Notes: generated by a model from the sequence alone, not told the origin. DNA of 64,000 nt from Trypanosoma brucei (GCA_000002445.1 CM000208.1:1600001-1664000), one strand, 5' to 3'; shown: positions 13,830 through 46,452, numbered from the stretch's first letter. A program made the numbers and translations.

Positions 13830-15851
13830 AAACAGAAAAATATATACATAATGATTGGAAGGCCAAAGACAAAAGACAAGTTGACGCTATCATCCATATC
13901 TACAACAAAATCTCAAACACAGTACCTCCCTCCAAGAGTCTCCCCCCCCCGCGAACCACAGACTCGACAACTCGAATAACCTGGAATTAGAACCCTACTG
14001 AAGCGACAATAATAATGATAATAATTAATTTAAAACACGAGCTGAATAATAATAAATAAATAAATAAATAATGATGACGTTCAATTCTGTGCGGAACATT
14101 ATGACCAGGACAACACCTGCTCAACGCTCTCAGGTTGCCTCAGCATCAATACATGCCGTCCATACCTCCCATACCACCCATGCCTCCCATACCACCTGCA
14201 GCAGGTGCATCATCCTTCGGTAAATCCACAACCGCGGCCTCTGCCGTCATCATGAGGCTGGCAACAGACGCAGCGTCAGTAAGCGCAACACGAACCACAC
14301 GCGCGGGGTCGATTATTCCGGCTTCAAACATGTTCACGTAGCGATCAAGCTGCGCATCGTAACCAACAGCGGCATCAGTGTTCTCGAGCACCTTCTCAAC
14401 AACAACAGCACCTTCCCTTCCAGCATTGGCAACAATGCGGTGGGCGGGCAACCGCACCGCGTTACGGATGATCTGCACGCCAGTCCGTTGATCAGCGGTG
14501 AGTGACTGATCCTGTAGTAATCCGTCCAATGCTTTGCTCGCACGCAGCAACGCAGCGCCACCACCAGGGACAATGCCTTCCTGCACCGCAGCGCGGGTCG
14601 AGCACAGGGCATCTGTGATGCGGTCCTTCTTCTCGTTCACCTCCACCTCAGAAGCACCACCAACGCGGATTACGGCAACGCCACCACTCAGTTTTGCAAG
14701 ACGTTCTTGAAGCTTCTCGCGGTTATAGTCACTCGTCTCGCGCTCAATGAGCCCGCGCAGCAGGTCCACGCGTTCTTTCATCATCGCAACGTCGCCACCA
14801 CCGTTCAACAGTACTGTATCGTCCTTCGTGATTGTTGCCTTCTTCACACTCCCCAAGATGCTGGCGTCGAATTTCTCAGCGTCAAGTTCCACACCACTGC
14901 CTTCCTCACCAACAACGCAGGCACCACTGAAAATGGCGATGTCTTGCAGCATCGCAGCCTTGTTGTCCCCGAAACCTGGAGCCTTCACGCACGCAATCTT
15001 CAGCTTTCCTTGAAGTTTATTGAAAATCATCGTCGTCAGGGCCTCACTCTCCACATCATCCGCAATGATCAGCAATGGTCGCCCACTGCGCACCACGTGA
15101 TTCAACACCGGTAAGATCGTATGAATGTTGTTCAACTTCTTTGCAGACACAAGCACGAACGCATCTTCAAGCTCGGCCTTCTGAGTCTTCGCGTCAGTTA
15201 CGAAGTACGGGCTGATGTAACCGCGGTCCACACTCATGCCTTCCACAACTTCCAGCTCAGTCGTCAATGTCTTCCCATCTTGTGTTGTGATCACGCCATC
15301 CTTCCCCACCTTCTCCATCGCCTCCCCAATCAGCTTGCCGAGTTCAACATCACCGTTCGCGGAAATCGTCGCAACCTGCACAACGTTCTCCGTATTTGTT
15401 ACCGTTCGGCTCTGAGATTCGATGTTCTTCAGGATCACCTCCACGGCGCGGTCCATACCACGCTTCATGTCAATGGGATTCGTCCCGGTTGCAATCGATT
15501 TGATACCCTCGCTAAAGATGCTTGCAACGAGGACAGCCGATGTCGTCGTTCCATCACCCGCGAGGTCATTTGTCTTATTGCACACCTGCCGCACGAGCTG
15601 CGCACCCATGTTCTCAAACGGGTCCTTGAACTCGATCGACTTCGCAACGGTTACACCATCCTTCGTGATCTTCGGAGCACCGTACGATTGCTCGATAATC
15701 ACGTTACGTCCCTTAGGCCCAAGGGTCGTTGCAACAGCCTCCACAGCGCGTTGTACGCCCTTCAGCATAGATTGACGTGCTTCCGTGCCAAAACGGATGT
15801 CTTTGGCACCAAAACGGACGACACAGCGGAACATGTTCGGATCTTATTGTT
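13830..15851. repeat. Left arm of an inverted duplication of about 2.02 kb (HSP60 CDS plus about 330 bp 3' flank plus 17 nt 5' of the ATG)
   Basis: The reverse complement of 13830-15851 matches 44431-46452 base for base where I compared them: the whole CDS (identical 562-aa product) and the flank from 'tgctgaggcaacctgagagcg...' to '...ccaatcattatgtatatatttttctg'. Identity ends 17 nt upstream of the ATG, and about 320 nt past the stop, at a T-run. Confidence 0.9.
14146..15834 (-). CDS. HSP60: Mitochondrial chaperonin HSP60 (GroEL/Cpn60), copy 1
   Basis: 562 aa. N-terminal '[16 protein letters not shown]' presequence, '[13 protein letters not shown]...[17 protein letters not shown]', 'DLAGDGTTT', and C-terminal '(GGM)n' repeat '[16 protein letters not shown]'. 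ATG verified. Confidence 0.96.
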
Positions 15852-16855
15852 TTGTGTTCTATGGTAAATATGATAAGAGGGAGGAAGGTAACCGATACCG
15901 GTTTTTTTGTTGTTGTGTCGTGATGTTTCTTGTGATCTTTTTGTTTTCAATGTTGTTTATGTATCTCTTCCAGTGTTTGAACGCCATCAGTCATCGCAAG
16001 CTGTTGTATAGTCAGTTTTGTTAGCTTTTTTTGTTATTGTTGCCTGCTGTGATTCGTTCTTCGTTTTAGTCTTTTAGAGACGAAAAAGGTAATTTTGTAG
16101 GGTTCCCCATATAAAACAAGCATTCTGTTGTTGTTGTTTTTTTGCGGCATGGTACTTCATCTGTACAGTGACCGTGACCTGTTGATCGTTCCTCCTTTCG
16201 TTACCAACAAGCAATGCACGCACTGAAATGTGTGTTATGCAAGAATTCCCTTTGTCTTGTATCTGCTGAGAAATTTTGTTGCGTATTGCTTGCGCACAGG
16301 ACGAAGACGGAACGTGCGAAGCATTTCTTCATGCGTTATGGCACGCAAACATACACTTTGCCGTGGCCTTTTTGTGTTGAGATAGCAACTTCCCCAACCC
16401 CCTCTTTGCTTATCCCTCCTGCCGCTTCTTAGTTTAGTGTTGCCCCTGTAACTTAGCTCTTTCGCCCTTTTCCCTCGTCTAGAACTCAAATCGTCTGGAG
16501 GCCGAGTCACGCTGTAATACAGACTGAATCTCCACTTCCCTGATATTTTGCTTCATTATGGCCCTGAACAAAAAGAAGATCACTCCATCCCACATATCCT
16601 TCCATTTGATCCATTTCCGACCGCGGTGGAATGCAAGTCTTTTGACGCACAACATAAAGGTTAATACTGCTCGTGAGTTTTCAAGATATCTGAATTCGGC
16701 CATAAAACACCACCGCAGAAACTCGCAATGGCTGGATTGACAACCTACACGGAGACGTTACAGTTCAAAGAGGGCATCAGAACAGGGGTGAAATTTGATC
16801 TATGTTCCTCTCCGCCAAGTCCTCGGACTCATTGGTAAAGGCGTCACCTGGGTTT

Positions 16856-19849
16856 CTACCGATGCGAGAACTGTGTCCCGCTGAGCGTGATGAACCCCCG
16901 AACCGTACCCAGGTCCCTTTGTCGTTCGTACCACTTGGCGAGCTCCAGAGACTTAACCCGTGCTGTGTTTACAACCCCGGGGGAAATACCGGCAAGCAGC
17001 GCCACCTCAACGCCATAGCTTCTCGCGCAGATTCCGGGCACAAGGCGATAAAGAAAAGTAATGGTCGGTATATTGCTGTCACTTGCAGCAGAAACGGCAA
17101 AGTCCATGTAACCGAGCTGAACCCCCCCAGTTTCAGATGCTGCTGAGGAAGTGGATTTCTGCATGGACTTGTGCTCCTCCTGCGCGAGCGCGTGGTAGTG
17201 GGTAGAGAAGAGTAGAAGGGGCGGCACTGGGTGCCTTTTCTTCATGGCGGCGAGCATTGCGTGCGCTATTGTGTAGCCGTCGTGCGTAGATGTCCCCCTG
17301 CCGAGTTCATCCACTAAACAAAGACTCCACGGACCGGCAAACCGCACAATCTCGGCTGTCTCACTTAACTCGACATAAAGGGTACTCTGTCCTTTGTGCG
17401 TTGCATCGCGAGCGCCAATCCTTGTGAAAACACGGGTAACGGGCGCCAAGCGCATAGACGTAGCAAACACTGGTCCACCCATTTGGGCTATTATAACATT
17501 CACGGCAACTGTGCGCATCAGCGTACTCTTTCCAGCCATATTCGGTCCGGTCAGCACCAAAATGCGTCCATGTGTAGCGTCAAGATTGACAGTGTTTGGG
17601 ACAGAATCGCTTTTGAGAAATGGATGTCGTAGTTCTTCCGCAAGCAGGTACGCACCGGCGTCACATTCTTGTACAACGGGGTAGCAAGTAGCGACACCAC
17701 TGGTATGTAGCGACGCCAGACTGAGCAAACAATCAAAATAGCAAAGAGCCGCTGTGGCTTCATAAAGGACGGGGAAGTAATTAAATATATGCGAGGCAAT
17801 GTTTCGAACAACAAGTAAGAGGGCATCTGCTTTCTTCGTTTTGGCACGCTTATGCTCCTCTACCAGAGGTTCCAAACCTGCGACTGTATATCTGACACAC
17901 GCTGAAGTACGGGATCGCTCGATGAACCCAGGGGGACATCTCTTAGGTGCCTCCATCAATGGAACCTCAACCAGAAAATTTTCACGACCGATATGAGAGT
18001 AGGTGATTGCAGCACCGTTGAAAATGTTGTCGCGCAGCTCCCCTAAAACTTCATCCAATTTTTTCTCTATGATATCTAAGCACTCCGTAGCTTCGTCGTA
18101 CGCGGGACATGCTCCCTGCGATGGTACAATCACCCCTGACACCTCAGCAGCTTTTCGATCGAAACAGGCCTTGATTGAGGCGACAGCAGGAGCCACTGCG
18201 CCCATGGTTCCCCACAGTTCCTGCAAAAGAGGGGGGGCACACTCCTTTTGGACGTTGTTAGACCAATCCAGCATCTCCTCGAATGCAACAACGGTTGAAA
18301 TAATAAGTTGAAGATGCTTCTTGTACTGCACGAGAGGATCTACGAAGGCTATTTGTTGCGAGTCACCCTTCAAATCGGCCAACCGTGAAAGATTGCGCTC
18401 GAAATCTGTGGCGAAAAGGTTTGTAAATCGAGATTCAAATGTGTTTGTTGTCCTCCCCCGCTTCGATCCACACTGCGTACCACTCGCCTGAGTGAATTCT
18501 TGGGTAGGGCCCTCGGAAGTACGAGTGCTCGAATTAGGGGTGCATATTGGTGTCGTAACATCGGCAGACTCCTCCGTTTTGGCCCAGAGATCATTCAAAT
18601 TATTTTCGATGATAAAGCGTACCGCTTCCTGCCTCGCATTGATAACACGCGGGGACGCGGAAGGTCGCAAAATCCAAGAACGGAAAAGACGCTTTCCACC
18701 GTTGGTGCAACAACGGTTGATCAGATTAAAAAGAGATCCGCGTTCACTATCGTCCCGCAGGTTACCCACGAGTTCAAGATTACTTACTGTCGCGGCATCA
18801 AGAACCAACCCGGGGTCTTCGCGACGTTCGTACCACAGAAGAGTTGAATCGGAGCAACGACTTCGATCATTCGACGGCACACCGCTGGTTACCTGCTGCT
18901 TTAAAAGGTGAAAGTTGTATGGTCGAGCCTCCAAAAGTATAGAGTCAACATTACTCAACTTTAACGATCTAAAATACTGAGCTAAGAAACGACCCGCCTC
19001 CTTTAAGCTCCTCTCCTCAAGGGGGAGTTTGCGAAGTGAGGTACCAACCTCTTCAACCAGTTCAACCTGGAAACCCTCCCCTTCTACCCATTCAAATAGA
19101 CGTCTCCCAAATGATCCCTTGGGCTCCTCACCAGGCGCATCAACAGCCCCACGCGGAATTATTATTTCACGGGGACGGATTTGTTGAAGGAGCGCAGAAA
19201 CTTCATTAAGCACCTCTTCAACAAAGCCTGCGGCGCTCTCCTTGCCATTCGTACCGCAGGGACAGTGGAAAACAACGCGACGGGAAAGATCGACGGCCAT
19301 TCCATCCACACTACCGCTCCCCATTGGATACAGTGCAAGTACGAACACTGCACCATAGCCGCTGATCATCATGGGATCGGTTATGGTGCCAGGGGTAAGT
19401 ATCTCAACTAGCTCTCGTGGCACGACTTTCGGACGAGCATTTTTTGATGACTCCCCTTCCTCCTTCATTTGCTCTACTCGACCCACCTTGTAGCCCCGAA
19501 AAACGAAGAGACGGGCCCATTCACTAAATGTTTGTTCAGGGACGCCTGCAAGCCGCATTTTCCCTCGGTTAGTGGTGTCAACAACTAGCTTCAACCCGAA
19601 CTCACGGTGAGCCATAGCGGCATCTTGGTCGTAAAGCTCATAAAATTTGCCCTTTTTGAAAAAAATTACCACATCGTAGTGCTTTGACTTCACTTCCCAG
19701 TACTGTCGTTCCATGGCAGCCATTGCCTCCAAGTCCCTAGGAGGGATAGTAATAGAAGAGGGCGGTCGCTTCGGATCAATACCCCTTAAAAACGGGTAAG
19801 AAACGTTTTCAGGGCAAATGTCCTCACATTCAAGCGAAACCTCAGGCAT
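16856..19849 (-). CDS. MutS homologue of the MSH6 type (DNA mismatch repair ATPase)
   Basis: 997 aa. The N-terminal mismatch-binding motif 'VVIFFKKGKFYELYDQDA' matches MSH6 'VICYKVGKFYELYHMDA' and retains the Phe-X-Glu mismatch-recognition residues. Walker A 'LTGPNMAGKSTLMRT', 'DELGRGTSTHDG' and 'FSTHYH' of the MutS ABC ATPase are present. Paralogue assignment (MSH6 versus MSH3) is tentative. Confidence 0.85.
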   Translation of the reverse strand: MPEVSLECEDICPENVSYPFLRGIDPKRPPSSITIPPRDLEAMAAMERQYWEVKSKHYDVVIFFKKGKFYELYDQDAAMAHREFGLKLVVDTTNRGKMRLAGVPEQTFSEWARLFVFRGYKVGRVEQMKEEGESSKNARPKVVPRELVEILTPGTITDPMMISGYGAVFVLALYPMGSGSVDGMAVDLSRRVVFHCPCGTNGKESAAGFVEEVLNEVSALLQQIRPREIIIPRGAVDAPGEEPKGSFGRRLFEWVEGEGFQVELVEEVGTSLRKLPLEERSLKEAGRFLAQYFRSLKLSNVDSILLEARPYNFHLLKQQVTSGVPSNDRSRCSDSTLLWYERREDPGLVLDAATVSNLELVGNLRDDSERGSLFNLINRCCTNGGKRLFRSWILRPSASPRVINARQEAVRFIIENNLNDLWAKTEESADVTTPICTPNSSTRTSEGPTQEFTQASGTQCGSKRGRTTNTFESRFTNLFATDFERNLSRLADLKGDSQQIAFVDPLVQYKKHLQLIISTVVAFEEMLDWSNNVQKECAPPLLQELWGTMGAVAPAVASIKACFDRKAAEVSGVIVPSQGACPAYDEATECLDIIEKKLDEVLGELRDNIFNGAAITYSHIGRENFLVEVPLMEAPKRCPPGFIERSRTSACVRYTVAGLEPLVEEHKRAKTKKADALLLVVRNIASHIFNYFPVLYEATAALCYFDCLLSLASLHTSGVATCYPVVQECDAGAYLLAEELRHPFLKSDSVPNTVNLDATHGRILVLTGPNMAGKSTLMRTVAVNVIIAQMGGPVFATSMRLAPVTRVFTRIGARDATHKGQSTLYVELSETAEIVRFAGPWSLCLVDELGRGTSTHDGYTIAHAMLAAMKKRHPVPPLLLFSTHYHALAQEEHKSMQKSTSSAASETGGVQLGYMDFAVSAASDSNIPTITFLYRLVPGICARSYGVEVALLAGISPGVVNTARVKSLELAKWYERQRDLGTVRGFITLSGTQFSHR

Positions 19850-22800
19850 TGGAAAGCGGAACTAGAGATCTCCTCAACTAATTAATTCAGGATACCAAGG
19901 GTCAGATCTCCCTCCAGCACTTAGGCAAGTAAACAAGGAGCGAAAGGCAATACTATCGTAAGTAACACAGGGCACCATGAGGTAAACAAACACGAAAAAA
20001 AGTAGTTGAAAAAATAAACACATATATGCCTTCTGAAACGGTATCCGAATCCTAGCATCCCGTGGTAATAGTTATTATAAGTGTTAGACGTAAAGTGTCA
20101 ACCACGAGGGTAAACGAAGGAAAAGAAACAATAAATAATCACGCTGATGTTTGAATATCATGTCATTCCTCACCACCGTTCCGAAGGTGACAAAAACATG
20201 TATCTGCTACCTCTAACTTGAGACAAAATTGAATATAATCGTAAAGGGTGTACCCGATACATACACGAATAACACTCAGTGTAAAAATTAAAAAATGAAT
20301 AAAACGAGAAGACCTTCGGTAATACCTAAGAAGACAGAACCTGTTTCAAACTCGCTGATTACATCCAACGTCCCTCTTATCCATCAATCCGGCTTGTAGT
20401 GATGACACATTCTAGTAATCAACTGTGAAAATGGGGTGAGATCATGAAAGCAGATGTTCATCCGCTGTTCATTCCGCGAGGATGTTAAACCTACACGGAA
20501 CCTTCCTTAGCTCTCCACACTGGGCACTATGAGGAAAACATGCCGTGCTACCTGTCACTGGAAACCTGTTGCTTCACCAGCAACGATAGACTAAAACGTG
20601 GCCCCAAACCCCCAAAAAGTTAGCGCCAGGACTGAAAGTTCGTACCATTTGCCCCGCAGAGCACATGTGTGCACGAGCGTATTGCCGGTGAGGAAAGAAA
20701 AATCCATAAACGTTTTCAGCAAAACATTGGAGGCCTCGGTTTTCCATGAAATACCATACATACAAGAAACAAGCGAAACGAAAAATAAAACAAAGCACCA
20801 TAGTTGTAGTCATGGATAATGCCCGTAGTTCCTTTTTTTTTTTGAGGAATAAATGAAAACATGTTCAGATTTTTTTGAAGAAAAGGGGGAGTTGCCGACC
20901 CTTAGAAAGCACCAATCAGCTTTTTCTCCTCAAAGGTTCGACATACCGCAAAGAATTGTTCATACGGTGCCCAACATCGGTTCGTATGCACCGCTATGAT
21001 CATTTTCGAATGCAACAACCACTAACGAGTCAACCCATTGCAACAGGGGAAAAGTATAAAAAAAACAAACTACACTATTGCTTCATTCAGAAATAAAAGT
21101 GATTGATGCGGGCACTAAATGTTAGAGGAAAGACTCGCTGAATTTTGTGAGCAGCGAGTCCTCTATTATATTACTACTCATCGATTTTATTATATTTTCC
21201 TTATATAATACAATTTATAAGGGGAGATGTGCCGCCGAATCATTGCATAAGTAAGGGAAGAAATCGAGAGAAAACGCAGTAGCTTCTGCATGTTATGCAG
21301 GACCCTAGACCATGGCTAAGCTAAACTCAAAGAATTAAAAAACAGTTAGAAAACACCGAAAGGCTTGATAACAAGTGAAAACCGCCACGATGCACCGTTT
21401 AGTGATATATCTAAAGTAACAGAGTTGAACAATAACTAGTGACAACGGAAACTGCATGGCCACCTTGAGACAAATATACCATAGCCCAATTTCACGGAAG
21501 AAAAAAGTCGATAGGAGCTAGTGGGCACGAGAGCTGTTGCCCTACGTGCTGGAGAGCAAAGCAATACTGAGCAATCACGTGTCCACAAGAAAATATTATA
21601 ATCAAGGGATAAAGCTCAGCAACCGTTCACCCTTTTGGTGCTTTTTGGGACACACAAAACCGAGGACAAAAGACGCAAAACGGTGAAGAGGTAAATATGT
21701 GCATGGCACATCATAAGCCATCAAAGATAGGCATCCAATACCCAGAGATGCCCCGCGGTTAAATCGGTTCCCAGCTTGTTTTTGTTTTACCGCGACCAGT
21801 TAGTACACCAAAACTTTTTTTCGTTAATTAAAAGAGTACCCCTCCAAACAAAACACTGAACCCATTAACACCAAATCAAAAAAGCCTTAGTGTTTCAAAA
21901 TAAAAAACGCAATATAGCATAAGGGTCAAGGTACAATAAATGGATTGTAAGTGTAAAGATTAAAAGGCAAGGGGGGAAACACGATCGTGGCGTGTAGCAC
22001 TTCCTTAGAAACACATATTGCACCGGTTGCCTCACAGAATGGAAGGAAAAAGATACCAGCACAATCGCACCGATACATACGTACGATGAACCAATTCGTA
22101 GAGCTTAAGTAATTAAAAAATATGAGCAGCTGGTGGCCAGGTTCGGGGAACTCAGCACAACGCATTACCAGGTTCAGCACATCGGGTAGACGGGGGAAGG
22201 GTTGTTTGTCTTCTTCATCAGCGCTGGAGCGGCCTGTCGCCCATACGTGTAACAAACCACAGTCAACAGACTAATGGGATATTGTGTCCACAAACTCTGC
22301 AAAATCGGCTGATATTTACACAGATTGGAAAGCGAAAATTAAAAAAAACCATGTAACCAAAGGAACCTCAACCATCTCTTTCCCCTTCAAAACATTAAAA
22401 TAATTTTCAGCGAGTATAACTAATCCCTTATTCATGAAGAATCGAGCGAAAGGGAAGAATAAATGTTGGAAACAGTGGTTGTGGTAAGCATATCTTCAAC
22501 TTTTCTATCACATAGAAAGGCATTTTAAAACCTTCCAACACGAAATTTTGACAAACATCCTCGCACGTACGGCCAACCCTCCGCAACAACACATGAACGA
22601 TGTTTACACACCTTACATGTATGGTTCCGGGAGTTCACCCTTCCCAGAGCCGCTGTTCGGTGAAAATCAAAAGAGGGCTATTATGTTATCCGTGACGATA
22701 TAAACAAACGCACAAAAGCGCAGTGAATCTCACCTATTTAAGAATAAGTTAAAGCTATGACAAAAATACAATAAGAAAGGGAAAGAGTTGGCTAGTGGAT

Positions 22801-26766: not shown

Positions 26767-26768
<2 letters not shown>

Positions 26769-26804
<36 letters not shown>
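26769..26804. repeat. (GT)18 microsatellite at the strand-skew switch point
   Basis: Direct read: 36 nt of uninterrupted 'gt'. Confidence 0.95.
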
Positions 26805-26806
<2 letters not shown>

Positions 26807-34553: not shown

Positions 34554-34804
34554 TGGCGTTCTGAGTCAGCAACTCGTGTTTCTCCCCCTTAAAGGTTTTT
34601 TTGCATGCAATTGCACTTACAGCGCAGTGACGTGGTAGTTGTTTTGTTTTGCGTGACGGTGTTGGAGTATCCGATCAACTATTTCCCCCCTGATAAATTT
34701 TATGCCCTTTATATATTGTTTCTACTGATATTTTCCGTACTCTAGGTTGACGACCGGAAGGGATTTTACATCCGTGAGGATAGTAGTAAGATATTGTTTC
34801 CGCT

Positions 34805-35980
34805 ATGCTGCCTATACTAAAGGCCGGGGAAGACGAGGGGGGTCCCCGGATCCCCCCTCCTCTATGGTGTGAGGCGAAGCGTGAGGCGTTAATCGATGGC
34901 AAAGGAAAAGTTAATCTTGAGGTAATGCTTGTTCATTTTCTTCGGCAAGGACGTTTGAGCAAGCACGATGCACTCAACATAATTCAAAATGCATCAAGTG
35001 TACTTCGTACGGAACCCAACGTCCTGAGGATTGCTGATCCTTCGGTTGTAGTCGTCGGCGACGTTCGGGGACAGTTCTACGATTTAGCAAAAATTATATT
35101 TATAGGTAATATGTTCAGTAGGGCAAAAACGTATTTGTTTCTAGGTAATTATATTGACTCATGTTTTTTTAGCACCGAGTGTATACTCCTTTTGCTTGCG
35201 GCGAAACTAACCCACCCGAGTTGTGTATTTTTGCTTCGTGGAAACCATGAATGCCGTTTTATGTCGAATATTTTCGATTTTCGGGGAGAGTGTCTGAAGA
35301 AATATAATGACGATGTTTACGAAGCCATTATGACAGCGTTTGATTGTCTTCCACTGGCAGCTGTTGTAAACAATCAGTATTTTTGTGTACATGGAGGTCT
35401 TTCACCTGACGTTACGAGTGTTGACAATATTCGCTTAATTTATCGATTTCGGGAACCCCCGTCGAAAGGGGCTATGTGTGATTTATTATGGTCTGATCCG
35501 TTTTGGGATGTAGAGAATCCGTCGTCAGTTTGCGAAGGTTCTAGAGATGATTATTACACCCCTGGAAATGGCCCATCGTACGGTACGGCGCCATGCTTTC
35601 TTGACAACGAGCAGAGAGGTTGCAGTTATTTGTTTAACTATCATAGTGTAAAGCACTTTTTGTTGACGAATGGTCTTCTTTGCGTCGTACGTAGCCATGA
35701 GGTTCAAGATGATGGTTATAAGTTGTATAGGTTCAACAGTGTTTCCAATTTTCCGTGCATGATGTCCGTTTTTTCTGCCCCTAATTACTGTGATAACTTG
35801 CACAACAAGGGTGCAGTCCTCATTCTTGAGGGGAAACAAATAGGTATAAAGCAGTTTTGTTGCTCGCCTCATCCTTATGTTCTCCCAAAGCATCTTAACG
35901 CATTTGAATGGTCATTCTCTTACCTGTTGGATAGTGTTCGCGACATATTTGCTTCCATCATTTCGTGTGAGGGAGCATGA
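34805..35980 (+). CDS. PPP-family Ser/Thr phosphatase-like protein with degenerate catalytic motifs (candidate pseudophosphatase)
   Basis: PPP fold markers are present in order, but several are altered. GDxHG becomes 'GDVRGQ', GDxVDRG becomes 'GNYIDSC', GNHE is intact ('RGNHECR'), HGG is intact ('CVHGGLSP'), 'RG' is intact, 'RSHEV' is present, and SAPNY is intact ('FSAPNYCD'). Confidence 0.75.
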   Translation: MLPILKAGEDEGGPRIPPPLWCEAKREALIDGKGKVNLEVMLVHFLRQGRLSKHDALNIIQNASSVLRTEPNVLRIADPSVVVVGDVRGQFYDLAKIIFIGNMFSRAKTYLFLGNYIDSCFFSTECILLLLAAKLTHPSCVFLLRGNHECRFMSNIFDFRGECLKKYNDDVYEAIMTAFDCLPLAAVVNNQYFCVHGGLSPDVTSVDNIRLIYRFREPPSKGAMCDLLWSDPFWDVENPSSVCEGSRDDYYTPGNGPSYGTAPCFLDNEQRGCSYLFNYHSVKHFLLTNGLLCVVRSHEVQDDGYKLYRFNSVSNFPCMMSVFSAPNYCDNLHNKGAVLILEGKQIGIKQFCCSPHPYVLPKHLNAFEWSFSYLLDSVRDIFASIISCEGA

Positions 35981-38900
35981 TGAGACTCAAGTTTCCTGTT
36001 TGTAGAACTTACATTGTCGACCCCCTTTCCGTTCTATGCCTACGAGTGCCAGCAGCGAGAGGGTATATATACGCACATATAAGCTTCTTTCTTTTATCTC
36101 GCATTTTTGATTTTAACACCGCTCCGTTGTATTTAGGTGTGGGTTAGTATTTAGTTTAAAATTCTTTCAAGTCCTCTCAACTCAGCCAGGGTCGTAAAGA
36201 GCAAGACACAGAGGGGAAAGCTGCCCTATAATCGCCTGTGGCGCATTTTCATGAGTCCTCATTAGGTGTTCCTGCGCCAGCGGCCAAAACATTGCATCAT
36301 TCCGTCGCCGTATGGAACCAACAATTGTGAAAAAAAAAAAGGATTTAATCGGGGGATCCCCTTGGAGCAGATCACTGTTATGAGGTTTATTATGAGTGTT
36401 GCGAACAGGGAAACAGCTGGTGATGTTTATAGACGTTCTGCTTTGGTATTGAGTATATGATTGCTGTACCAACTGCCATGAGGCAGTCATTAATACTTTT
36501 TTTGACTTTTAATTCGTTCTTTGATCAAAAGTGTACGTGTATGGAATCATCTTGAATATTTGGAGAATTAATCATACGTCCGGAAGATTTGAATATAGTA
36601 ACTTCTTCTACCAGAGACCGAAATACCGGGATGTGTGATTTTATGCGGTTGCCGCTGGGAGCACGCTTCTATGCGTGCCTTTTACGAGGGCGCCTACGTT
36701 GTTGCAAGTGTGATCTGTGCGGCATTTACTCGTACAGCGGAGAGCGGGGATATCGCTTCTGGGGTATGCGGGAACGGGACATTGAATGCCTTCTTTTCAT
36801 CGTTAACACTCAACTTATTGAACATCTGTAGATGTCAAAGGGTGCCGATGCCGACTGATCATCGAGATAGCGACGGAGTTACCGTTGTTCCCTGGAGTGA
36901 TGTCCGATTTTACCAAATATGAGAGGAGGAGGTCTGTGTTTTCTCTTTTGACCGGACCGGTTATGAAATGAGTGATTTACCACTGCATTCAGCATGTGCA
37001 ATGACAGCAGTAAGGTTTGTAACTCCGCTTAAATCACCACGAGTATGTGAGTGCTCGTGTGATATGTTGTACTGCGCAAGAAAGAAACACGTGGACCCAA
37101 TTCCTGCCGTATCGACCCTCGGCAAAAACGTTTCGAGCACCTCTTCGTTAAATATACGCTTGTGGATGGGCTTGAACGAGAGCGTTCGGCATCAAGATAT
37201 ATGTTTCCTGTGTAGGTAAAGACAATAGATTCGAAGTTGACGTTTCCAGAAGTGTGCAACACGCTGTGGGAAGATTCCACTGGAAGCTGCATAATTTTGT
37301 TATGTACAGATGCCGTAGGTTCATTCGGTTGCTTCTAGAACCTCGTTGGAGGATTAGATAGGCATACAGGGAGTACGCCGTTGCTTGCTCGAGGTTATAG
37401 TGCACCTCCTGTTGACACGAACGGACATACGCACGTGTGTGAACACGAAGTGCCCTTCAAACCTTAAGGATTCGATGTTTCAGTCTACTTTATCATGCTG
37501 AGGGGTTAAACTGACCTATGCGTTTTTGCACTTGGGTGTGGTTTTAGAATTCTTTGAGAGGCGGGATATTAGCATGCAGTGCCTCTGTGCTCTATATCTT
37601 CCATGCACATCCGGTCTGGTGAATGACCCTATCTCTTTACTACGCGGTGTCATGCGGCTTATACTGACAGTTGTTAACTCTGGTGCATCCTGCTGGCGTG
37701 TTAATGGCCCTCGTTGAGCGGTGAGATGTGGAGCTCCCCTCCTTTTCAAGTGGTTCTGTAAATGGTGGCTAATCGTAACTCATTCTACAGATTTGCAGCT
37801 ATGTTTTTTCCGCAGGCGCGCTGTGCAGAGATGTGTGATGCTTACAGGTGGATACCACATACTGCTCCGTTGCTGTGCGGGTTATGCTTGGGATGCAGAC
37901 ATGGAAGGGTTGGGGAATACTGACTTCCACGATGTGGGTGGCGTTAACGCTGACGAAGAAAAATATTGTTTTTGTAGATTGATTGTCAAACGAGCTGCGC
38001 GGGTGGCGTGGTGGGGGAAGGGCGTTGTTTTATTCTCTGTGTCGCTCAAGCGCTAGATCATGCACTTGAAGGAGTGTCCACCAGCGTCATCGGTGGGGTG
38101 GCTGCGCCCTTCGTTGACCATCTACATGTTTGGGTCGAAATCACTGGCGTTGTCGTCTGCTGTATTCGTGTTGGATTGCTTTACGATGGGGCGGAAGCAA
38201 CGACTCCTCTCAGCAGTGGTAAATGTTCCTCTGACGTTGCGTCTGATGCTGTATTTCTCAGCTTCATACAAGGGGGAGGAACCGAGATTACCACCATCTA
38301 CATGTGTTCTTGGGTCTTCACAGGGCAACAATTTTCTTCTTTTACCCGGCGCCTTTGCGGAGAGTGGCTGCACCACGTTCTTCCCAGGTCGAGAGGGCTT
38401 AATGAGTGAATTACAGGATGAATTGTGGCTACAGTTGCCGTCGAGGCTACTGATTTTAGCTAGATTAGATTTAGCGAACTTTTTATTTGCAGTTGTAGGT
38501 CGTTTGCCGAATAGTGGGATCAACCTCTTTCAGCAAAGGCCCCCTTCATCACTGGCAGTTTTACCCAAACGTTGCATGGGCATGACTCTTGTTGCCCTTA
38601 CAACGTTGTAACTCCTCGCGGAAATGTCTCGATTGTGTCTCTTTCGTATGGACACTTCATTTGGAGGAGGTTTTATCCCTTTTTTCTGATAAATTGATTT
38701 GTTGCAGCAACCTCGTCGTCCCCCAACATGAGTTGCACGGATCAATATTAAAGTGGAAAGAAGGGGTGCTACGACGCAGTGCTTTTGGTCGATGTCGGTA
38801 AGGTATCGCTTTGCTTCGCACTACAGGTTTTTTGTTTGGGGGTATTGCGCGGACGGTGTGTTTGTGTGTGTGTGAAAAGACTATGGGGGTAGCGAAGAAG

Positions 38901-39440
38901 GCCCGGTAAAGGGTCAGATCGTGATGGAGCCGTGACAAACAGTAGGAGTGGTGGTAACATCGAGAGGTGTCGCAACTCGGGCTTCGGTGCGCACAATATA
39001 TGGGAAACGTTGCCCTCAAGGACCCCGCTGCCAGCTACTCGGTATTGGGGCGAAGGGACAAACTTGAAGTCATGGAGTTTGCTGAATTCCCTTCCAGTGA
39101 GAGCCTGCGGGTTGATCAGTTTAGACCAGTTTTAGGATACCCAAAATCTGGAACTTCAATATCCCACTGTTTTGTCTCCGCACAGCCTTAAGGTTGTGAA
39201 ACGTCACGAACAGGGAGTGCCGTAGGACCACGTGGGTACCCGCTTTAATAACCGCAGGGGCTAGCCGTGTTTTACTATTCCCCTCCCCGATAAAAGAGGC
39301 AGTAGCACTGTTCCTTCTTGTTTTCATATTTGTTTTCGTTTTGTAAAAAAAAATTCCTTGGATGCTCTTCTTTTTCCTCCTAACCTTTTATCAATTATTC
39401 CAATGGAAAAAAAAAGCAGCAACAGGACTCACCGGCCACT

Positions 39441-40460
39441 ATGGTGGATAAACTAACCCCACCATTCGTTCCTCCGTTTCAGCACACGAAAATGCCTGCA
39501 GTGCCGTGCCGGGCAAGCAAAGGGCATCATCAGGTTCAGCTGCAGCACTCCGTGATAACGTTTGGTTCACCAAATGTGGAGGATGGTTCAAGATTCTTCA
39601 GGCAGGTAGTCGAAGGCGTGCGCACAGGTTCAGAGCGAGTGCTACCAAAGGATGAAAGTAGACGATGCCTCAGTGGTGAGAGCGATGGCGCGACTAGTCG
39701 AAGGTTACAGCAGCTGAATACTGACCTTCAGCAGGCGCTACAGAAGCTACGGCAGAGGGACCGGGAAGAAACTAAGCTACGACGAAGGTTGTCTGTAGTT
39801 CAACTCAAGCTAGAGGAAGCGGCTGAGCGTCACAGTGCTACGATAGAACACGTCCTCGGGCTGATGGACGTGTACGGATCACGTATGGAGGAACAGAGGA
39901 TGGAGCTTCAGCGATTGCGCGCAAAGGTAAATAACTGTGATAAAACCTCCGAAGGGCTTAGAAACGAGGGGGTAATCAGTGCTCCAGTTGGAGTCCGTGG
40001 GTTGAAGGCTAGTGCTGTGCAGGCAGAGAATGAAAGCCTGAAGAATCGCGTTAAGTCACTCACTGATGAGAGGGAGGAGTTGAGGAAAATGACACAAAGG
40101 CTACAGGATGAAAAGGAGGAGAACCTACAAACTTTTTCCAACATACGGAACAAGTTAACGGCCGATATCATGGATAAACAAGAACAAATACATCAAGCTA
40201 ACAAAAAATTGAAAGAGTTATCGGATGAAGCTGCGGCTAGGGATATCTTGGTTCAACAAGTGCGACTTTTCGTGCAAATGGTTTGCCAGCCTGATTTCCA
40301 CGTGGTTAAGGACACCTCTCTCCAACCAGTCGACCGGAGCAGGACCGAACCAACAGGTTTTGTTTTAGTTCCCCTGACGCTGATGCTGCAGGGTTACTCT
40401 CTACTTTCAAACGAAGACCGCGATGACCTTGTAGAACTGTACCGGCAACGGCTCACTTGA
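39441..40460 (+). CDS. Hypothetical coiled-coil protein
   Basis: 339 aa, ATG verified. The central Glu/Lys/Leu/Gln-rich region is predicted coiled-coil. The conserved-looking C-terminus is 'GFVLVPLTLMLQGYSLLSNEDRDDLVELYRQRL'. Confidence 0.55.
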   Translation: MVDKLTPPFVPPFQHTKMPAVPCRASKGHHQVQLQHSVITFGSPNVEDGSRFFRQVVEGVRTGSERVLPKDESRRCLSGESDGATSRRLQQLNTDLQQALQKLRQRDREETKLRRRLSVVQLKLEEAAERHSATIEHVLGLMDVYGSRMEEQRMELQRLRAKVNNCDKTSEGLRNEGVISAPVGVRGLKASAVQAENESLKNRVKSLTDEREELRKMTQRLQDEKEENLQTFSNIRNKLTADIMDKQEQIHQANKKLKELSDEAAARDILVQQVRLFVQMVCQPDFHVVKDTSLQPVDRSRTEPTGFVLVPLTLMLQGYSLLSNEDRDDLVELYRQRLT

Positions 40461-41318
40461 AAAGTAACACCCACGCCGGCTGATACCTCGTACTAAAACC
40501 ACGTGGAGTAGTGTGTGAAACAGTATTTTTTCTCCCCGTTCTTTCTCATCAGCACGCTAATATAACTTCTTTACCTCGCTACGCAACGGGTGCGTACGCC
40601 GAGAGGGTCAGAAACGCATGTTAGCCACTTATTTTTAAAAAAAGAAAAAGAGAGCAAACACTTCTCGGTCCTGTGGGGAAGAAGTGTCCCTATTTTTCAC
40701 CACATTTTAGTGTTGGTTACTTAAAACATTTGCTCGGGGTATCTGCGCATACATTGGGCAAACTGTGTATCAGCCGTTTGGTGATGTATGTGGTGGCATA
40801 AACATGGTGGTACACGAACTCCCCACCCCCATCCCCGCGGTAGAAGAAGTCTACCATGTGTCACTAGCGTTCATGTGCAATTTTTGTTTTTGTGATGGCA
40901 ACAACAGAGAGGACCATTGGCAGTAACAGTTTTCTCTCTTTTTTTTGTTATTTTGTGCACACAAATGGACATTGTCTTTTTTCGTGTATTCCATAATGGT
41001 TTTAGCAGATCGTACGTGTACGTTTTGGCCTGCCTCTGTGTTTCTTTCCCGTACTATTGCTCTCCGTTCTGTCCCCTCTCCGGCGTATTGTCGTTCAGGT
41101 TTAGGTCACCAAAGGTGACGTAGCTTGCTGTGGCCATCAATACGGAAGGAAAAGAAGGGAAAAGGACGTTTATAACTCGGAAAACAGGGCCCCGGTAGCG
41201 TAGTCTAGTGACCAGTGTGAGCACCTCTAAGCAAAAAAGAAGTTAAGGGAGAGAAAGATAGGACAAAGTACGAGCGTGTGGAAGAAAGGGGAGGTAATCG
41301 ACGCAACACCTTGGTTAA

Positions 41319-41804
41319 ATGTCTGTCGCACCAAAACGTACGGCCGAGTTGCTGTGGCTAGAGCAGCAGCGGGCGAGGCAGTATGAACAGCATCGGAAAC
41401 GTGTGGAGCAACAGAAACCATGTGTCGACAACAAGACTCCCCGAAATCTAAGCTTGAGCAACAAGCGCGCCCTCATGGAACAAGAACGACGAAAATGCAT
41501 TGACGAGGAAAACAGACGGTTAGTTGTGAATATGTCCGCTATTATGGAACGTGGAGGCGGCATCGACAACAAGGAACCTTGGCGTCGTACCAACGGCCCC
41601 CGCGACGCAGAAATTCGTCGGAGAAGAGAACAGCAAAAGCTTGCGGAGGAGAACTTAAAATTACTTCACCGTTTAGAGAACGTCAAGCCTGTGTATCGCC
41701 TTGAAAAGTGGGAAATGGAGCGAGATGAAAACGAGATACTCGTCGACCGAATCAGCCGCTACCCGTATATACCAATGAATAGAAGGAAGGGCGTGGGTGA
41801 GTAG
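41319..41804 (+). CDS. Hypothetical small basic/charged protein
   Basis: 161 aa, ATG verified, Arg/Glu/Lys-rich ('EQQRARQYEQHRKRVEQQK...'). No motif recognised. Confidence 0.45.
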   Translation: MSVAPKRTAELLWLEQQRARQYEQHRKRVEQQKPCVDNKTPRNLSLSNKRALMEQERRKCIDEENRRLVVNMSAIMERGGGIDNKEPWRRTNGPRDAEIRRRREQQKLAEENLKLLHRLENVKPVYRLEKWEMERDENEILVDRISRYPYIPMNRRKGVGE

Positions 41805-42327
41805 TAGATAATGTTCTGCAGCCCCACTCTGCGTGCTGGCTGTTACTTCTTTGCAAGTACTTAGTCGCCCACTTTTACCCCTCTCCCTTGGGCTGCGGCA
41901 TCCTTTTTTTTTTTTTTAGCAGGCTACCGCTCCACTTATGTATGTATTCTGTGAAGTTTACTAGAGACCCTGCATATTTTATCCGTGTGGCGTCTCAAGT
42001 CGTGGCCCACCCGCCATATATGTGAGCACACACGCATATATAAATATATATATGAATCTGATTGTTTGTGAAATAGATGTGTCAACTACTGGGGAAAGAG
42101 CAACGACACAAACGGAGGAAACGCCACTCACTTAGCCGACGTTGTCTTTCTCGTGCCTTTTTTTTACGGTCTAACATATGGCAGCTCACAAACTCGTTAA
42201 TATATGAATTTTTTGCACACGTATCAAATCTTCTTTACTCCTTTTCTTTACGGGGTGCAGCTTCCAATTCACACAGAACAAATAAATAAGCATCCATACA
42301 CAGTTGCAAGGGCTAAGTGTCCGATCG

Positions 42328-43689
42328 ATGGTTGTGAATTCTGATGGGGTGCTTAAGGACAACTACACAGATGATCAAACATCGGAAGAAGACCCTAACG
42401 GTGATAACATAAGGACAAACAGGTCAAGCGATGATGGCCCAAGGAGGGGCATAATGAGATTTACTGAGCCGCTGTTTAGTCGGGTGATACCACACGGTGG
42501 AACCCTTTCCAACACTTTCACTTTTGCCTCGGCTACCCTCGGTGGAAGCATAGTCGCCCTGCCATGGGCTTTCCACGCGGTGGGAATAGTGATGGGTACC
42601 GTCTACCTGTTTTTGATGACATTAGTGACTGCATACACCGTCACCATTATTGGATTTGTCATGAAGAAGTCGCGATTCAGTGGCTTCGAGCAGATGTCCC
42701 TAGTTGTGCTGGGCCGGGGTGCTGCCTACTTGATGTCCGTTGTTATGGGCGCCAGTTGTCTTGGTGCTGCTGTCGCTTATGTCATCGCCGTGCGCACTTT
42801 GCTTGAACCGCTACTGCAGCAGTCTCCGTTGACGTCAAATTTTTTTGGAACGACCGCGGGTGTCCGCCTAACAACATTTTTTGTTTGGCTGTTGGGGATG
42901 CTTCCGCTTGTTCTGCCAAAACAGATCAATTCCCTGCGCTACTTCTCGGCGATTGGAGTAGTTTGTGTGGTTTACTTTTCAGTCGCCATAATTGCACACG
43001 CCACTATGGCTGGAGTACCGAAGCGTGGTGACGTTTCAATGTTTCAGGGTGGAAACATCGCAGTTGAGGGATTTGGTATTTTTATCTTTGCGTATCTATG
43101 TCATTGTGTTGCATTCCAAACATACTATGAAATGAGGATTCCCAGTGTGAGAAAATTATTTATTTCAACTACCATCGCCATGATATTTTGCTCTGTACTG
43201 TACTGGTTTGCAGGCGTGTTCGCCTATTTGGAGTTCGGCCCGGAGGTTAAAGACTCAGTGTTGTACATGTATGATCCCATCAGTGATCCCATGATGTTCG
43301 TTGCGTACGTGGGGCTCGTTGCCAAATTATGTGTTTCCTACGCGATGAATATGCTTCCTTTGCGAAACACAGTGTATTTCCTCCTTCAGTGGGAGATTCA
43401 GCAGCTACCATATTGGAAGCACACAGCTGTAGTGACGGTAATGTCCATATTGGTACTTATTTGTGGCATTTTCTTTCCCAAGATCAGCACTGTGTTTGGT
43501 TTCGTAGGCTCTGTTTGTGGCGGCCTCATTGGCTTTATTTACCCCGCTCTTTTCTACATGTATTCAGGAAACTGGTCATTGGCGACTGTTGGATGGTTTC
43601 ACTACATCATGACCTACTGCGTCTTAATGCTTGGTGTCGCCAGCGTGGTGTTCGGCACGGCGGCGACGATTTATGCGATTATCAATTAG
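42328..43689 (+). CDS. Amino-acid transporter (AAAP/Aa_trans family permease)
   Basis: About 11 predicted transmembrane helices. The N-terminal cytosolic region is followed by 'SNTFTFASATLGGSIVALPWAFHAVGIVMG', which is typical of trypanosomatid AAT permeases. The ORF-track start 42304 is TTG. The first ATG is at 42328. Confidence 0.8.
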   Translation: MVVNSDGVLKDNYTDDQTSEEDPNGDNIRTNRSSDDGPRRGIMRFTEPLFSRVIPHGGTLSNTFTFASATLGGSIVALPWAFHAVGIVMGTVYLFLMTLVTAYTVTIIGFVMKKSRFSGFEQMSLVVLGRGAAYLMSVVMGASCLGAAVAYVIAVRTLLEPLLQQSPLTSNFFGTTAGVRLTTFFVWLLGMLPLVLPKQINSLRYFSAIGVVCVVYFSVAIIAHATMAGVPKRGDVSMFQGGNIAVEGFGIFIFAYLCHCVAFQTYYEMRIPSVRKLFISTTIAMIFCSVLYWFAGVFAYLEFGPEVKDSVLYMYDPISDPMMFVAYVGLVAKLCVSYAMNMLPLRNTVYFLLQWEIQQLPYWKHTAVVTVMSILVLICGIFFPKISTVFGFVGSVCGGLIGFIYPALFYMYSGNWSLATVGWFHYIMTYCVLMLGVASVVFGTAATIYAIIN

Positions 43690-44294: not shown

Positions 44295-44430
44295 CCGCGT
44301 GACACAATCAACCATTGCTCCATCAAATACGTGGGGAAAACAACAACAACAACCAGACTTACTCTTCGCCCCACCCCCTACTACCACAAAAAGTTAACAG
44401 GTAACATTAAAAGTGAAAACGCAGACTAAT

Positions 44431-46452
44431 AACAATAAGATCCGAACATGTTCCGCTGTGTCGTCCGTTTTGGTGCCAAAGACATCCGTTTTGGCACGGA
44501 AGCACGTCAATCTATGCTGAAGGGCGTACAACGCGCTGTGGAGGCTGTTGCAACGACCCTTGGGCCTAAGGGACGTAACGTGATTATCGAGCAATCGTAC
44601 GGTGCTCCGAAGATCACGAAGGATGGTGTAACCGTTGCGAAGTCGATCGAGTTCAAGGACCCGTTTGAGAACATGGGTGCGCAGCTCGTGCGGCAGGTGT
44701 GCAATAAGACAAATGACCTCGCGGGTGATGGAACGACGACATCGGCTGTCCTCGTTGCAAGCATCTTTAGCGAGGGTATCAAATCGATTGCAACCGGGAC
44801 GAATCCCATTGACATGAAGCGTGGTATGGACCGCGCCGTGGAGGTGATCCTGAAGAACATCGAATCTCAGAGCCGAACGGTAACAAATACGGAGAACGTT
44901 GTGCAGGTTGCGACGATTTCCGCGAACGGTGATGTTGAACTCGGCAAGCTGATTGGGGAGGCGATGGAGAAGGTGGGGAAGGATGGCGTGATCACAACAC
45001 AAGATGGGAAGACATTGACGACTGAGCTGGAAGTTGTGGAAGGCATGAGTGTGGACCGCGGTTACATCAGCCCGTACTTCGTAACTGACGCGAAGACTCA
45101 GAAGGCCGAGCTTGAAGATGCGTTCGTGCTTGTGTCTGCAAAGAAGTTGAACAACATTCATACGATCTTACCGGTGTTGAATCACGTGGTGCGCAGTGGG
45201 CGACCATTGCTGATCATTGCGGATGATGTGGAGAGTGAGGCCCTGACGACGATGATTTTCAATAAACTTCAAGGAAAGCTAAAGATTGCGTGCGTGAAGG
45301 CTCCAGGTTTCGGGGACAACAAGGCTGCGATGCTGCAAGACATCGCCATTTTCAGTGGTGCCTGCGTTGTTGGTGAGGAAGGCAGTGGTGTGGAACTTGA
45401 CGCTGAGAAATTCGACGCCAGCATCTTGGGGAGTGTGAAGAAGGCAACAATCACGAAGGACGATACAGTACTGTTGAACGGTGGTGGCGACGTTGCGATG
45501 ATGAAAGAACGCGTGGACCTGCTGCGCGGGCTCATTGAGCGCGAGACGAGTGACTATAACCGCGAGAAGCTTCAAGAACGTCTTGCAAAACTGAGTGGTG
45601 GCGTTGCCGTAATCCGCGTTGGTGGTGCTTCTGAGGTGGAGGTGAACGAGAAGAAGGACCGCATCACAGATGCCCTGTGCTCGACCCGCGCTGCGGTGCA
45701 GGAAGGCATTGTCCCTGGTGGTGGCGCTGCGTTGCTGCGTGCGAGCAAAGCATTGGACGGATTACTACAGGATCAGTCACTCACCGCTGATCAACGGACT
45801 GGCGTGCAGATCATCCGTAACGCGGTGCGGTTGCCCGCCCACCGCATTGTTGCCAATGCTGGAAGGGAAGGTGCTGTTGTTGTTGAGAAGGTGCTCGAGA
45901 ACACTGATGCCGCTGTTGGTTACGATGCGCAGCTTGATCGCTACGTGAACATGTTTGAAGCCGGAATAATCGACCCCGCGCGTGTGGTTCGTGTTGCGCT
46001 TACTGACGCTGCGTCTGTTGCCAGCCTCATGATGACGGCAGAGGCCGCGGTTGTGGATTTACCGAAGGATGATGCACCTGCTGCAGGTGGTATGGGAGGC
46101 ATGGGTGGTATGGGAGGTATGGACGGCATGTATTGATGCTGAGGCAACCTGAGAGCGTTGAGCAGGTGTTGTCCTGGTCATAATGTTCCGCACAGAATTG
46201 AACGTCATCATTATTTATTTATTTATTTATTATTATTCAGCTCGTGTTTTAAATTAATTATTATCATTATTATTGTCGCTTCAGTAGGGTTCTAATTCCA
46301 GGTTATTCGAGTTGTCGAGTCTGTGGTTCGCGGGGGGGGAGACTCTTGGAGGGAGGTACTGTGTTTGAGATTTTGTTGTAGATATGGATGATAGCGTCAA
46401 CTTGTCTTTTGTCTTTGGCCTTCCAATCATTATGTATATATTTTTCTGTTTT
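44431..46452. repeat. Right arm of the inverted duplication (reverse complement of 13830-15851)
   Basis: See the left arm. The 5' boundary is 17 nt before the ATG ('aacaataagatccgaac'). The 3' boundary is at a T-run near 46450. The only difference I noticed is a homopolymer G8 at 46332-46339 against C9 at 13944-13952. Confidence 0.9.
44448..46136 (+). CDS. HSP60: Mitochondrial chaperonin HSP60 (GroEL/Cpn60), copy 2
   Basis: The predicted 562-aa protein is identical to copy 1. ATG verified. Confidence 0.96.

Follow-up and report, generated by a model that had tools for sequence, protein, structure and literature searches.

Palindromes of the Y chromosome, in which sequence is converted from arm to arm, are an inverted-repeat analogue of the locus described here: two HSP60 genes in opposite orientation within a 64-kb window of Trypanosoma brucei DNA (the window being the whole stretch that was analysed). 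At the FLNA-EMD locus of the eutherian X chromosome, Small et al. in 1997 and Caceres et al. in 2007 reportedly described recurrent inversion between inverted duplications of about 11 kb. As at the HSP60 locus, the inverted duplicates there are said to flank a gene-bearing segment of a few tens of kilobases, to convert one another, and, through recombination between the arms, to show an orientation that depends on the lineage. The HSP60 arms differ in being a single 2-kb unit built around a housekeeping gene, and because the segment that flips between them contains a bidirectional polycistronic start region, the orientation of this cassette is neutral for every gene. Recurrence and polymorphism within a species are documented for FLNA-EMD but not for the HSP60 locus. 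The plastid repeats IRa and IRb are likewise homogenised by conversion, and a crossover between them flips the enclosed region without harm to expression. However, the plastid isomers coexist equally in every cell, whereas coexistence is not seen at the HSP60 locus, whose arms are nuclear and ten times shorter.

Among trypanosomatids, concerted evolution has been described for tandem gene arrays (Jackson 2007; PMC1855330). These resemble HSP60 in that highly expressed duplicates within polycistronic units are kept identical by recombination and serve dosage. The T. brucei HSP60 copies, in contrast, lie 28.6 kb from each other in inverted orientation and belong to different transcription units, and HSP60 is mentioned nowhere in that paper (0 occurrences). 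HSP60 arrays do occupy the corresponding positions in T. cruzi and T. melophagium, and the Lister 427 strain of T. brucei carries two right-side copies. The two T. brucei genes, Tb927.10.6400 and Tb927.10.6510, have been handled simply as a multi-copy gene (PMC3616968). We found no description of this inverted pair, of its age or of a lineage-specific flip of the cassette in the searchable literature. The genes already carry annotation, tandem arrays of T. brucei are known to evolve in concert, and the structure is not mechanistically unexpected. We consider it very probable that the pair is an ancient inverted duplication, that its copies are homogenised by gene conversion, and that the cassette between them was inverted at least once within the genus by exchange between the arms.

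A repeat search, blastn and a direct base-level comparison agree on the two arms, which are 2027 nt (left) and 2026 nt (right) long, lie on one chromosome as reverse complements of each other, and are separated by 28,579 nt (coordinates in Table 1). They are the sole repeat of at least 40 nt in the window; no direct repeat of that length occurs in the 64 kb, and the locus as it stands in the window is therefore not a tandem array. Identity starts 17 nt 5' of each ATG and ends at a T-run, 321 nt past the stop codon on the left and 320 nt on the right. Along this whole length the arms differ twice, by one substitution and one homopolymer indel, so they are not substantially diverged. A sequence-only reading of the window had proposed two full HSP60 genes facing outward, arms of about 2.02 kb lying 28.6 kb apart, and identity limits 17 nt upstream of the ATG and about 320 nt into the 3' flank, and all of these agree with the base-level comparison. 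It had also taken the arms to be identical apart from one homopolymer. The C9/G8 run is real, but the single synonymous substitution had been overlooked. The plus-strand genes enclosed by the arms, put at six in that reading, number seven by gene calls in sister assemblies.

It is hard to credit that one arm, or the identity of the arms, was created during assembly by repeat collapse, copy-paste or polishing. The short-read assembly of T. equiperdum OVI does collapse the repeat and joins the wrong flanks. The arms in the window, however, differ at two sites and must have been assembled separately, and the two-position layout recurs in Sanger, PacBio and Oxford Nanopore (ONT) assemblies of several strains and species. 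HSP60 stands at both positions in the independent assemblies of DAL972 (Sanger), Lister 427 (PacBio) and T. melophagium (ONT), confirming that neither arm is an assembly artefact.

Orthologous loci in related trypanosomatids were compared by the genes that adjoin HSP60 on either side. We distinguish four junctions: MutS-HSP60-298aa (J1), AAT-HSP60-WD40 (J2, where AAT is an amino-acid transporter), MutS-HSP60-WD40 (J3) and AAT-HSP60-(PLAC8)-298aa (J4). T. brucei has J1 and J2. T. vivax, compared on its MutS side, has J1 in the order MutS-HSP60-321aa-RING-474aa-GAS. Several strains of T. cruzi have J1 with an array (Sec7-LicD-MutS-HSP60 tandem array-PLAC8x2-322aa-RING-L37ae), in which the MutS-side HSP60 is present in 4 to >10 copies with a period of 2.1 kb, and at a separate locus T. 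cruzi has PMM-...-AAT-HSP60 followed by further degenerate copies. Leishmania major has 339aa orthologue-HSP60-HSP60-WD40-ALG3. Thus, the adjacency of HSP60 to 298aa and then RING is common to T. brucei, T. vivax and T. cruzi, that of HSP60 to WD40 and then ALG3 is common to T. brucei, T. melophagium and L. major, and AAT-HSP60 is also found in T. cruzi, T. theileri and T. melophagium. Because the HSP60-298aa and HSP60-WD40 adjacencies both recur across other species, the duplication is shown to be ancient rather than recent, with both HSP60 positions predating the Trypanosoma radiation. Both positions are found elsewhere, and the orientation differs in one lineage. In T. cruzi CM026586.1 (retrieved stretch L023, 17700-21014), the copies that follow the first AAT-side HSP60 are fragmented and have 56-61% protein identity to T. 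brucei HSP60 by tblastn; they are either degenerate copies or the product of an assembly error.

The sequences themselves tell of exchange. HSP60 coding sequences (CDSs) cluster by species and not by genomic position, with 99-100% identity within T. brucei, T. melophagium and T. cruzi and 78-85% between species. By the Nei-Gojobori method, synonymous divergence (dS) between the two T. brucei copies is 0.002, or 1 difference in 405 synonymous sites, versus 1.43 to T. vivax, 1.59 to T. cruzi and 1.71 to T. melophagium. The non-coding 320-nt 3' flank is also identical between the T. brucei arms, except for the C9/G8 run. Five substitutions and one TTAT indel split the lineage of the window and OVI from that of Lister 427 and DAL972, and these are present in both arms of each genome, while the arms inside any one T. 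brucei-group genome differ by 0-1 substitutions. The left arm of Lister 427 and its first right arm match at all 2027 nt, whereas a duplicated flank just beyond the arm, described below, shows 50 differences over 2974 nt (Fisher p = 8e-12 versus the arms). Since dS is 0.002 within a genome and 1.4-1.7 between species although both positions are older than the genus, homogenisation of the copies within genomes, that is, concerted evolution by gene conversion, is strongly supported. The molecular mechanism would be non-crossover homologous recombination. Ongoing gene conversion rather than a recent duplication of the locus had been suspected from the window alone, and the orthology of the positions across species, the low dS and the strain variants common to both arms uphold it.

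Two other explanations of arm identity fail on these data. A recent duplication specific to T. brucei, in which the copies are alike for lack of time and without any conversion, would account for the near-perfect identity and the sharp edges. We regard it as highly improbable, as HSP60 is found at both positions across T. vivax, T. cruzi, T. melophagium and T. theileri, and at the right-hand position in L. major, and as variants younger than the split of T. brucei strains sit in both arms. Purifying selection on an essential chaperone, without sequence exchange, might also be thought to keep the copies identical, the HSP60 protein being highly conserved (dN of 0.04-0.08 between species). This carries next to no weight with us, because synonymous sites that are saturated between species are almost unchanged within the genome, because the non-coding 3' flank is identical too, and because in Lister 427 the arms are free of differences next to a duplicated flank that has many.

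Gene conversion between the arms is also consistent with the limits of the identity. Between positions, the copies stop matching on the 5' side at -17 nt in T. brucei, at about -17 in T. melophagium and at about -23 to -28 in T. cruzi, and a limit so similar in three species is what conversion restricted to the unit first duplicated would produce. The arm unit of 2.03 kb equals about one period (2.1 kb) of the HSP60 tandem arrays in T. cruzi and T. melophagium. The second right-hand copy of Lister 427 (427_R2) is a mosaic of strain variants, as seen in this single copy from one assembly.

In T. melophagium, both sides of the locus lie on one contig of an ONT-based assembly, JAJSEB010000048.1 (assembly method in PMC9099014). 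One strand reads 201aa-453aa-...-Sec7-LicD-98aa-MutS-HSP60-WD40-ALG3-730aa-zfPARP, which is J3, and its ALG3-730aa-zfPARP genes match positions 49000-55374 of the window, the outer-right flank of T. brucei. The other strand reads PMM-2OG-metallophosphatase-1008aa-339aa orthologue-CFAP97-AAT-HSP60, with three or more HSP60 copies. The two strands meet at a divergent switch of 0.8 kb, and about 34.6 kb separates the inverted HSP60 genes. The independent assembly of T. theileri has AAT-HSP60-PLAC8-PLAC8. This is the reciprocal junction J4, since in T. cruzi the PLAC8 pair has the MutS-side HSP60 array on one side and the 298aa orthologue on the other. Both reciprocal junctions are therefore present in this lineage, J3 in T. 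melophagium and J4 in T. theileri. The flank genes adjoin HSP60 on both sides with normal intergenic spacing (HSP60 to WD40 is 392 nt in T. melophagium vs 376 nt in T. brucei) and four outer-right genes are colinear, which places the breakpoints inside the arms. The simplest account would be that one crossover between inverted HSP60 arms flipped the start-region cassette, and on these gene orders the inverted isomer exists as a fixed, viable state in the T. theileri/T. melophagium lineage. The sequence-only reading had argued that a crossover between the arms would invert the cassette and still be viable, and the swapped junctions lend support to this at the evolutionary scale. The MutS-side HSP60 of T. 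melophagium (retrieved stretch L009, 10001-11681) is 8 nt short, out of frame and annotated as a 544-aa product that direct translation of the gene does not give; either the ONT consensus is wrong here or the copy has become a pseudogene. In the array on the opposite side, the spacer between copies matches the 108 nt upstream of this gene.

In the explanation that we favour, one HSP60 expression unit, consisting of the 17-nt leader, the CDS and the 3' untranslated region (3'UTR), would have been duplicated anciently in inverted orientation. One copy lies downstream of MutS in the leftward polycistronic unit and the other downstream of AAT in the rightward unit, and together they bracket the putative divergent RNA polymerase II (Pol II) start region. 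Repeated non-crossover homologous recombination between the arms would then homogenise the copies, and the arm edges would stay sharp because conversion cannot spread past the boundaries of the original duplication. As comparison of the species shows, at least one crossover-type exchange within the arms, somewhere in the genus, inverted a cassette of about 29-35 kb relative to the outer flanks. Because the cassette holds the divergent start region, every gene stays co-directional with transcription in either orientation. The likely consequences are a doubled HSP60 dosage, identical protein and 3'UTR regulation, and splice-acceptor regions specific to each copy, and the arms may be a hot spot of structural variation, as the Lister 427 variant suggests.

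Several points weigh against this explanation. J3 and J4 were seen in two sister species, each in one assembly. The stretch analysed for T. melophagium ended within its right-hand HSP60 array, and that for T. theileri covered the AAT side. The T. theileri junction leans, by way of T. cruzi, on PLAC8 as an outer-left marker, a gene that T. brucei lacks at this place. Parsimony and L. major are the grounds for the polarity of the inversion, the T. cruzi region beyond the AAT-side array and the AAT side of T. vivax lying outside the comparison. No T. brucei assembly has the inverted isomer, and there is thus no record of recent crossovers. Polishing with short reads can make the repeats of a long-read assembly look more alike than they are, a concern that does not extend to the Sanger-based DAL972.

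Some of these points bear on a further possibility, namely that the swapped flanks of T. theileri and T. melophagium come from misassembly, or from independent translocations with breakpoints beside HSP60, and not from recombination between the arms. That each reciprocal junction is known from a single assembly would fit, as would the array of at least three copies on one side in T. melophagium, which is hard to assemble, and the frameshifts in its MutS-side copy. Nevertheless, we find this quite unlikely. Two independent assemblies made with different technologies give the complementary junctions of a single inversion, and the T. brucei-like spacing of HSP60 and WD40, together with the colinearity of the four outer-right genes, argues against it as well.

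As to polarity, the T. theileri clade is placed nearer T. cruzi in the trypanosome phylogeny, and Salivaria and T. cruzi bracket it. Parsimony (J1 in Salivaria and T. cruzi) and the gene order of L. major suggest that the T. brucei orientation is ancestral and that of the T. theileri clade derived. Conversely, the T. theileri-type order could be the ancestral one, having arisen from an inversion breakpoint between Leishmania-like tandem HSP60 copies, with the order of T. brucei, T. vivax and T. cruzi as the derived flip. L. major does have a tandem HSP60 pair upstream of WD40, and a break between tandem copies would directly give inverted copies with MutS-HSP60-WD40 and AAT-HSP60-298aa. However, MutS-HSP60-298aa in both Salivaria and T. 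cruzi would then need two flips instead of one, given this phylogeny, and L. major retains the order 339aa orthologue-HSP60-WD40, making this polarity on the whole rather unlikely. Either polarity requires at least one arm-mediated inversion.

Within T. brucei, the inverted isomer is absent from three long-range assemblies (the window, DAL972 and Lister 427), all of which have J1 and J2. The coexistence of two orientations in T. brucei, proposed by the sequence-only reading, is thus not seen in three or four genomes compared as assemblies. The T. b. gambiense genome paper lists inversions on chromosome 10 only at 275-330 kb and 3250-3350 kb. One contig of T. equiperdum OVI, CZPT02002007.1, has the order AAT-HSP60-298aa-RING-L37ae and was considered as an inverted isomer, but was rejected as a collapsed repeat. 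The OVI assembly was made from 2x150-bp Illumina reads with Velvet and SSAKE (PMC5278650). Its WD40 contig, CZPT02001439.1, starts exactly at an arm edge and the long contig ends at the other arm edge. A short-read assembly with both contigs broken at the arm edges indicates a collapse, in which the inner-right side was joined to the outer-left flank, and it bears out an earlier warning that the repeat is a collapse hazard. Gene order at the HSP60 locus is unreliable in the public OVI assembly.

Lister 427 carries a 5.96-kb insertion after the right arm, with a third HSP60 copy (CM010681.1, 1650990-1672678; retrieved stretch L002, 9984-17985). The order is AAT-HSP60(R1)-298aa-RING' (to window position 10873), then AAT' (from 43477)-HSP60(R2)-WD40. 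A 3-kb inverted copy of the outer-left flank, comprising the 298aa gene and part of the RING gene, thus follows the right arm and is joined back to the transporter gene through 13 nt of microhomology, CCCAAGATCAGCA, which creates a direct duplication of AAT'-HSP60 (junction at about 14984-14999 of the stretch). The flank copy is 1.7% diverged from its left flank, and the AAT' duplicate differs at 1/957 sites. One nucleotide is missing from a G4 run of the third HSP60 copy, perhaps through a PacBio error or because the copy is a pseudogene. We infer that, as the variant arose, replication moved from one inverted arm to the other, by template switching or by a break-induced route, and came back through microhomology. 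The divergence of the flank copy could reflect either a divergent allele as template, or an old event with later homogenisation of the direct repeats. The variant is genuine-looking and is known from one assembly.

A similar course is said to underlie the DUP/INV-DUP rearrangements of Carvalho et al. 2011, in which templates switch between inverted repeats and return at microhomology. The Lister 427 variant resembles these in its inverted left-flank copy on the right arm, its return at 13 nt of microhomology and its direct AAT'-HSP60 duplication. Amplicons driven by inverted repeats are described for Leishmania (PMC5031125); relative to these, the Lister 427 variant comes from one assembly and implies no extrachromosomal amplicon.

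It is possible to go further and see the HSP60 arms as a live recombination switch that flips the 28.6-kb cassette at a measurable rate, with both orientations present within strains or populations. We think this unlikely. Under the same view the AAT-HSP60-298aa junction of Lister 427 would be a by-product of inter-arm events. If such a switch did exist, it would be a natural test of the orientation independence of a trypanosome Pol II start region and of any replication origin inside it.

In this locus a trypanosome presents a clear case, and one that can be dated, of dispersed and inverted gene copies evolving in concert; their homogenisation has lasted as long as the genus and extends beyond tandem arrays. 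The locus also shows that a whole divergent start region, together with its first genes, can invert relative to the chromosome and become fixed. A fixed inversion fits the view of polycistronic units as orientation-neutral modules. In practice, neither short reads nor RNA-seq nor proteomics can distinguish the two HSP60 genes. With OVI the locus has proved a trap for assembly, and in Lister 427 it varies in structure; both points bear on knock-outs, copy-number calls and synteny analyses.

The encoded protein is identified by its sequence as mitochondrial HSP60, a group I chaperonin. PF00118 covers residues 32-535, a C-terminal GGM repeat is present, and the protein is 94% identical to the T. 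vivax entry 'Chaperonin HSP60, mitochondrial'. The exact protein is encoded twice on chromosome 10 in DAL972 (T. brucei gambiense, FN554973.1) and Lister 427 (CM010681.1), and it is also found in T. equiperdum OVI. The shared 3' flank is probably the 3'UTR. The right arm likely holds all of it, since this arm ends about 55 nt before the WD40 ATG, where a polypyrimidine tract starts. The targets of ZC3H11 include the HSP60 6400/6510 mRNAs (PMC3616968), and by inspection the (UAUU)n/(AUU)n runs in the flank are of the motif type that ZC3H11 binds. The corresponding (TTAT)n/(ATT)n runs, at 46205-46275 and 14007-14077, vary in repeat number between arms and strains. Copy- or strain-specific regulation of the heat-shock response through these varying AUU-type repeats is conceivable. 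Upstream of -17, the two copies have unrelated sequences, each with its own polypyrimidine/AG candidates, and these support the earlier proposal of a separate splice-acceptor region for each copy. In sum, two transcription units would each supply one dose of the same mRNA body, an arrangement that, by analogy, fits the dosage logic of trypanosomatid arrays (PMC1855330).

Table 1. Coordinates of the HSP60 arms and neighbouring features in the window.
Feature	Position	Strand	Details
Left inverted-repeat arm	13825..15851	-	17 nt 5' leader + HSP60 CDS + 321 nt 3' flank
Right inverted-repeat arm	44431..46456	+	
Sole substitution between arms	15001 (left) / 45281 (right)	- / +	synonymous, CTG vs CTA, Leu278; direct comparison
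Sole indel between arms (homopolymer)	about 13943-13951 / 46332-46339	- / +	C9 vs G8
HSP60 (Cpn60) CDS, MutS-side copy, Tb927.10.6400-type	14146..15834	-	562 aa; Pfam Cpn60_TCP1 1.2e-66
HSP60 CDS, transporter-side copy, Tb927.10.6510-type	44448..46136	+	562 aa; protein identical to left copy
Shared 3' flank	46137..46456	+	(UAUU)n/(AUU)n repeats; mirror copy 13825-14145
MutS homologue, inner-left flank marker	16856..19849	-	first gene of leftward unit; Pfam MutS_I/III/IV/V
Divergent strand-switch region	19850..32511	.	ORF-poor (ORF, open reading frame), 12.7 kb; skew sign change
Inner-right block, PMM to AAT	32512..43689	+	seven genes
298-aa gene, outer-left marker	11419-12315	-	kinetoplastid-specific
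RING-finger gene, outer-left marker	10342-11001	-	
WD40/CDC20-like gene, outer-right marker	46512-48305	+	
ALG3, outer-right marker	49000-50214	+	

The locus corresponds by sequence match to T. brucei-group chromosome 10, Tb927.10.6400/6510. The window is ~99.9% identical to contigs of T. equiperdum OVI and ~99% identical to DAL972 and Lister 427. TREU927 has an entry that matches the 298-aa flank protein at 100% identity, and a TREU927/OVI entry does so for the 339-aa protein. An exact-match look-up of the window MutS protein returned no identical record. The leftward unit runs MutS homologue, HSP60, 298aa, RING, L37ae, 487aa and GAS. The rightward unit runs PMM, 2OG oxygenase, metallophosphatase, 183aa, 339aa, CFAP97-like (161aa), AAT, HSP60, WD40/CDC20-like and ALG3.

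Every gene to the left of 19849 is read from the minus strand and every gene to the right of 32512 from the plus strand, and the AT and GC skews switch sign at about 25.4-26.6 kb. We assign the ORF-poor region between them, on this layout, as a trypanosomatid divergent strand-switch region and Pol II start region. Eight of its largest ORFs (114-255 aa) had no Pfam match, and tRNA and Rfam scans of the window gave no matches; degenerate retroelements are possible there. A perfect (GT)18 microsatellite lies at 26769-26805, right where the skews change sign, and adjoins the stretch where the GC content of the switch region is highest (25.0-26.2 kb, GC 0.55-0.57). Elements rich in GT have been linked to trypanosome Pol II promoters.

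The switch region spans 12.7 kb in T. brucei, while its homologue in T. melophagium, T. theileri and T. cruzi measures about 0.5-1.3 kb. From the switch to MutS, T. melophagium has a 201-aa gene, a 453-aa gene, a further stretch, Sec7 and LicD, and in T. cruzi and T. theileri a Vps41-like gene adjoins the 201/204-aa gene. By tblastn, no remnants of the 201/204-aa gene, Sec7 or LicD were found in the T. brucei window, including the 12.7-kb region; the Vps41-like gene was not searched. T. vivax also lacks LicD and Sec7 upstream of MutS. A salivarian-specific rearrangement at the start region is implied by these gene orders.

T. brucei lacks PLAC8 genes in the matching 1.8-kb interval, 12316-14145. 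In T. cruzi, a pair of PLAC8-domain genes separates HSP60 from the 298aa orthologue, and in T. theileri such a pair follows HSP60 (coordinates in the retrieved stretches: L014, 16187-17860; L022, 17626-20953). T. cruzi, T. theileri and T. melophagium each have a gene of about 1010 aa that follows the metallophosphatase and precedes the 339aa orthologue, and the 1278-aa gene upstream of the L. major 339aa orthologue is its homologue. In T. brucei, 35981-39440 holds only the 183-aa ORF and weak, roughly colinear tblastn traces of the ~1010-aa gene (E 0.04-1), and this interval may be its decayed pseudogene.

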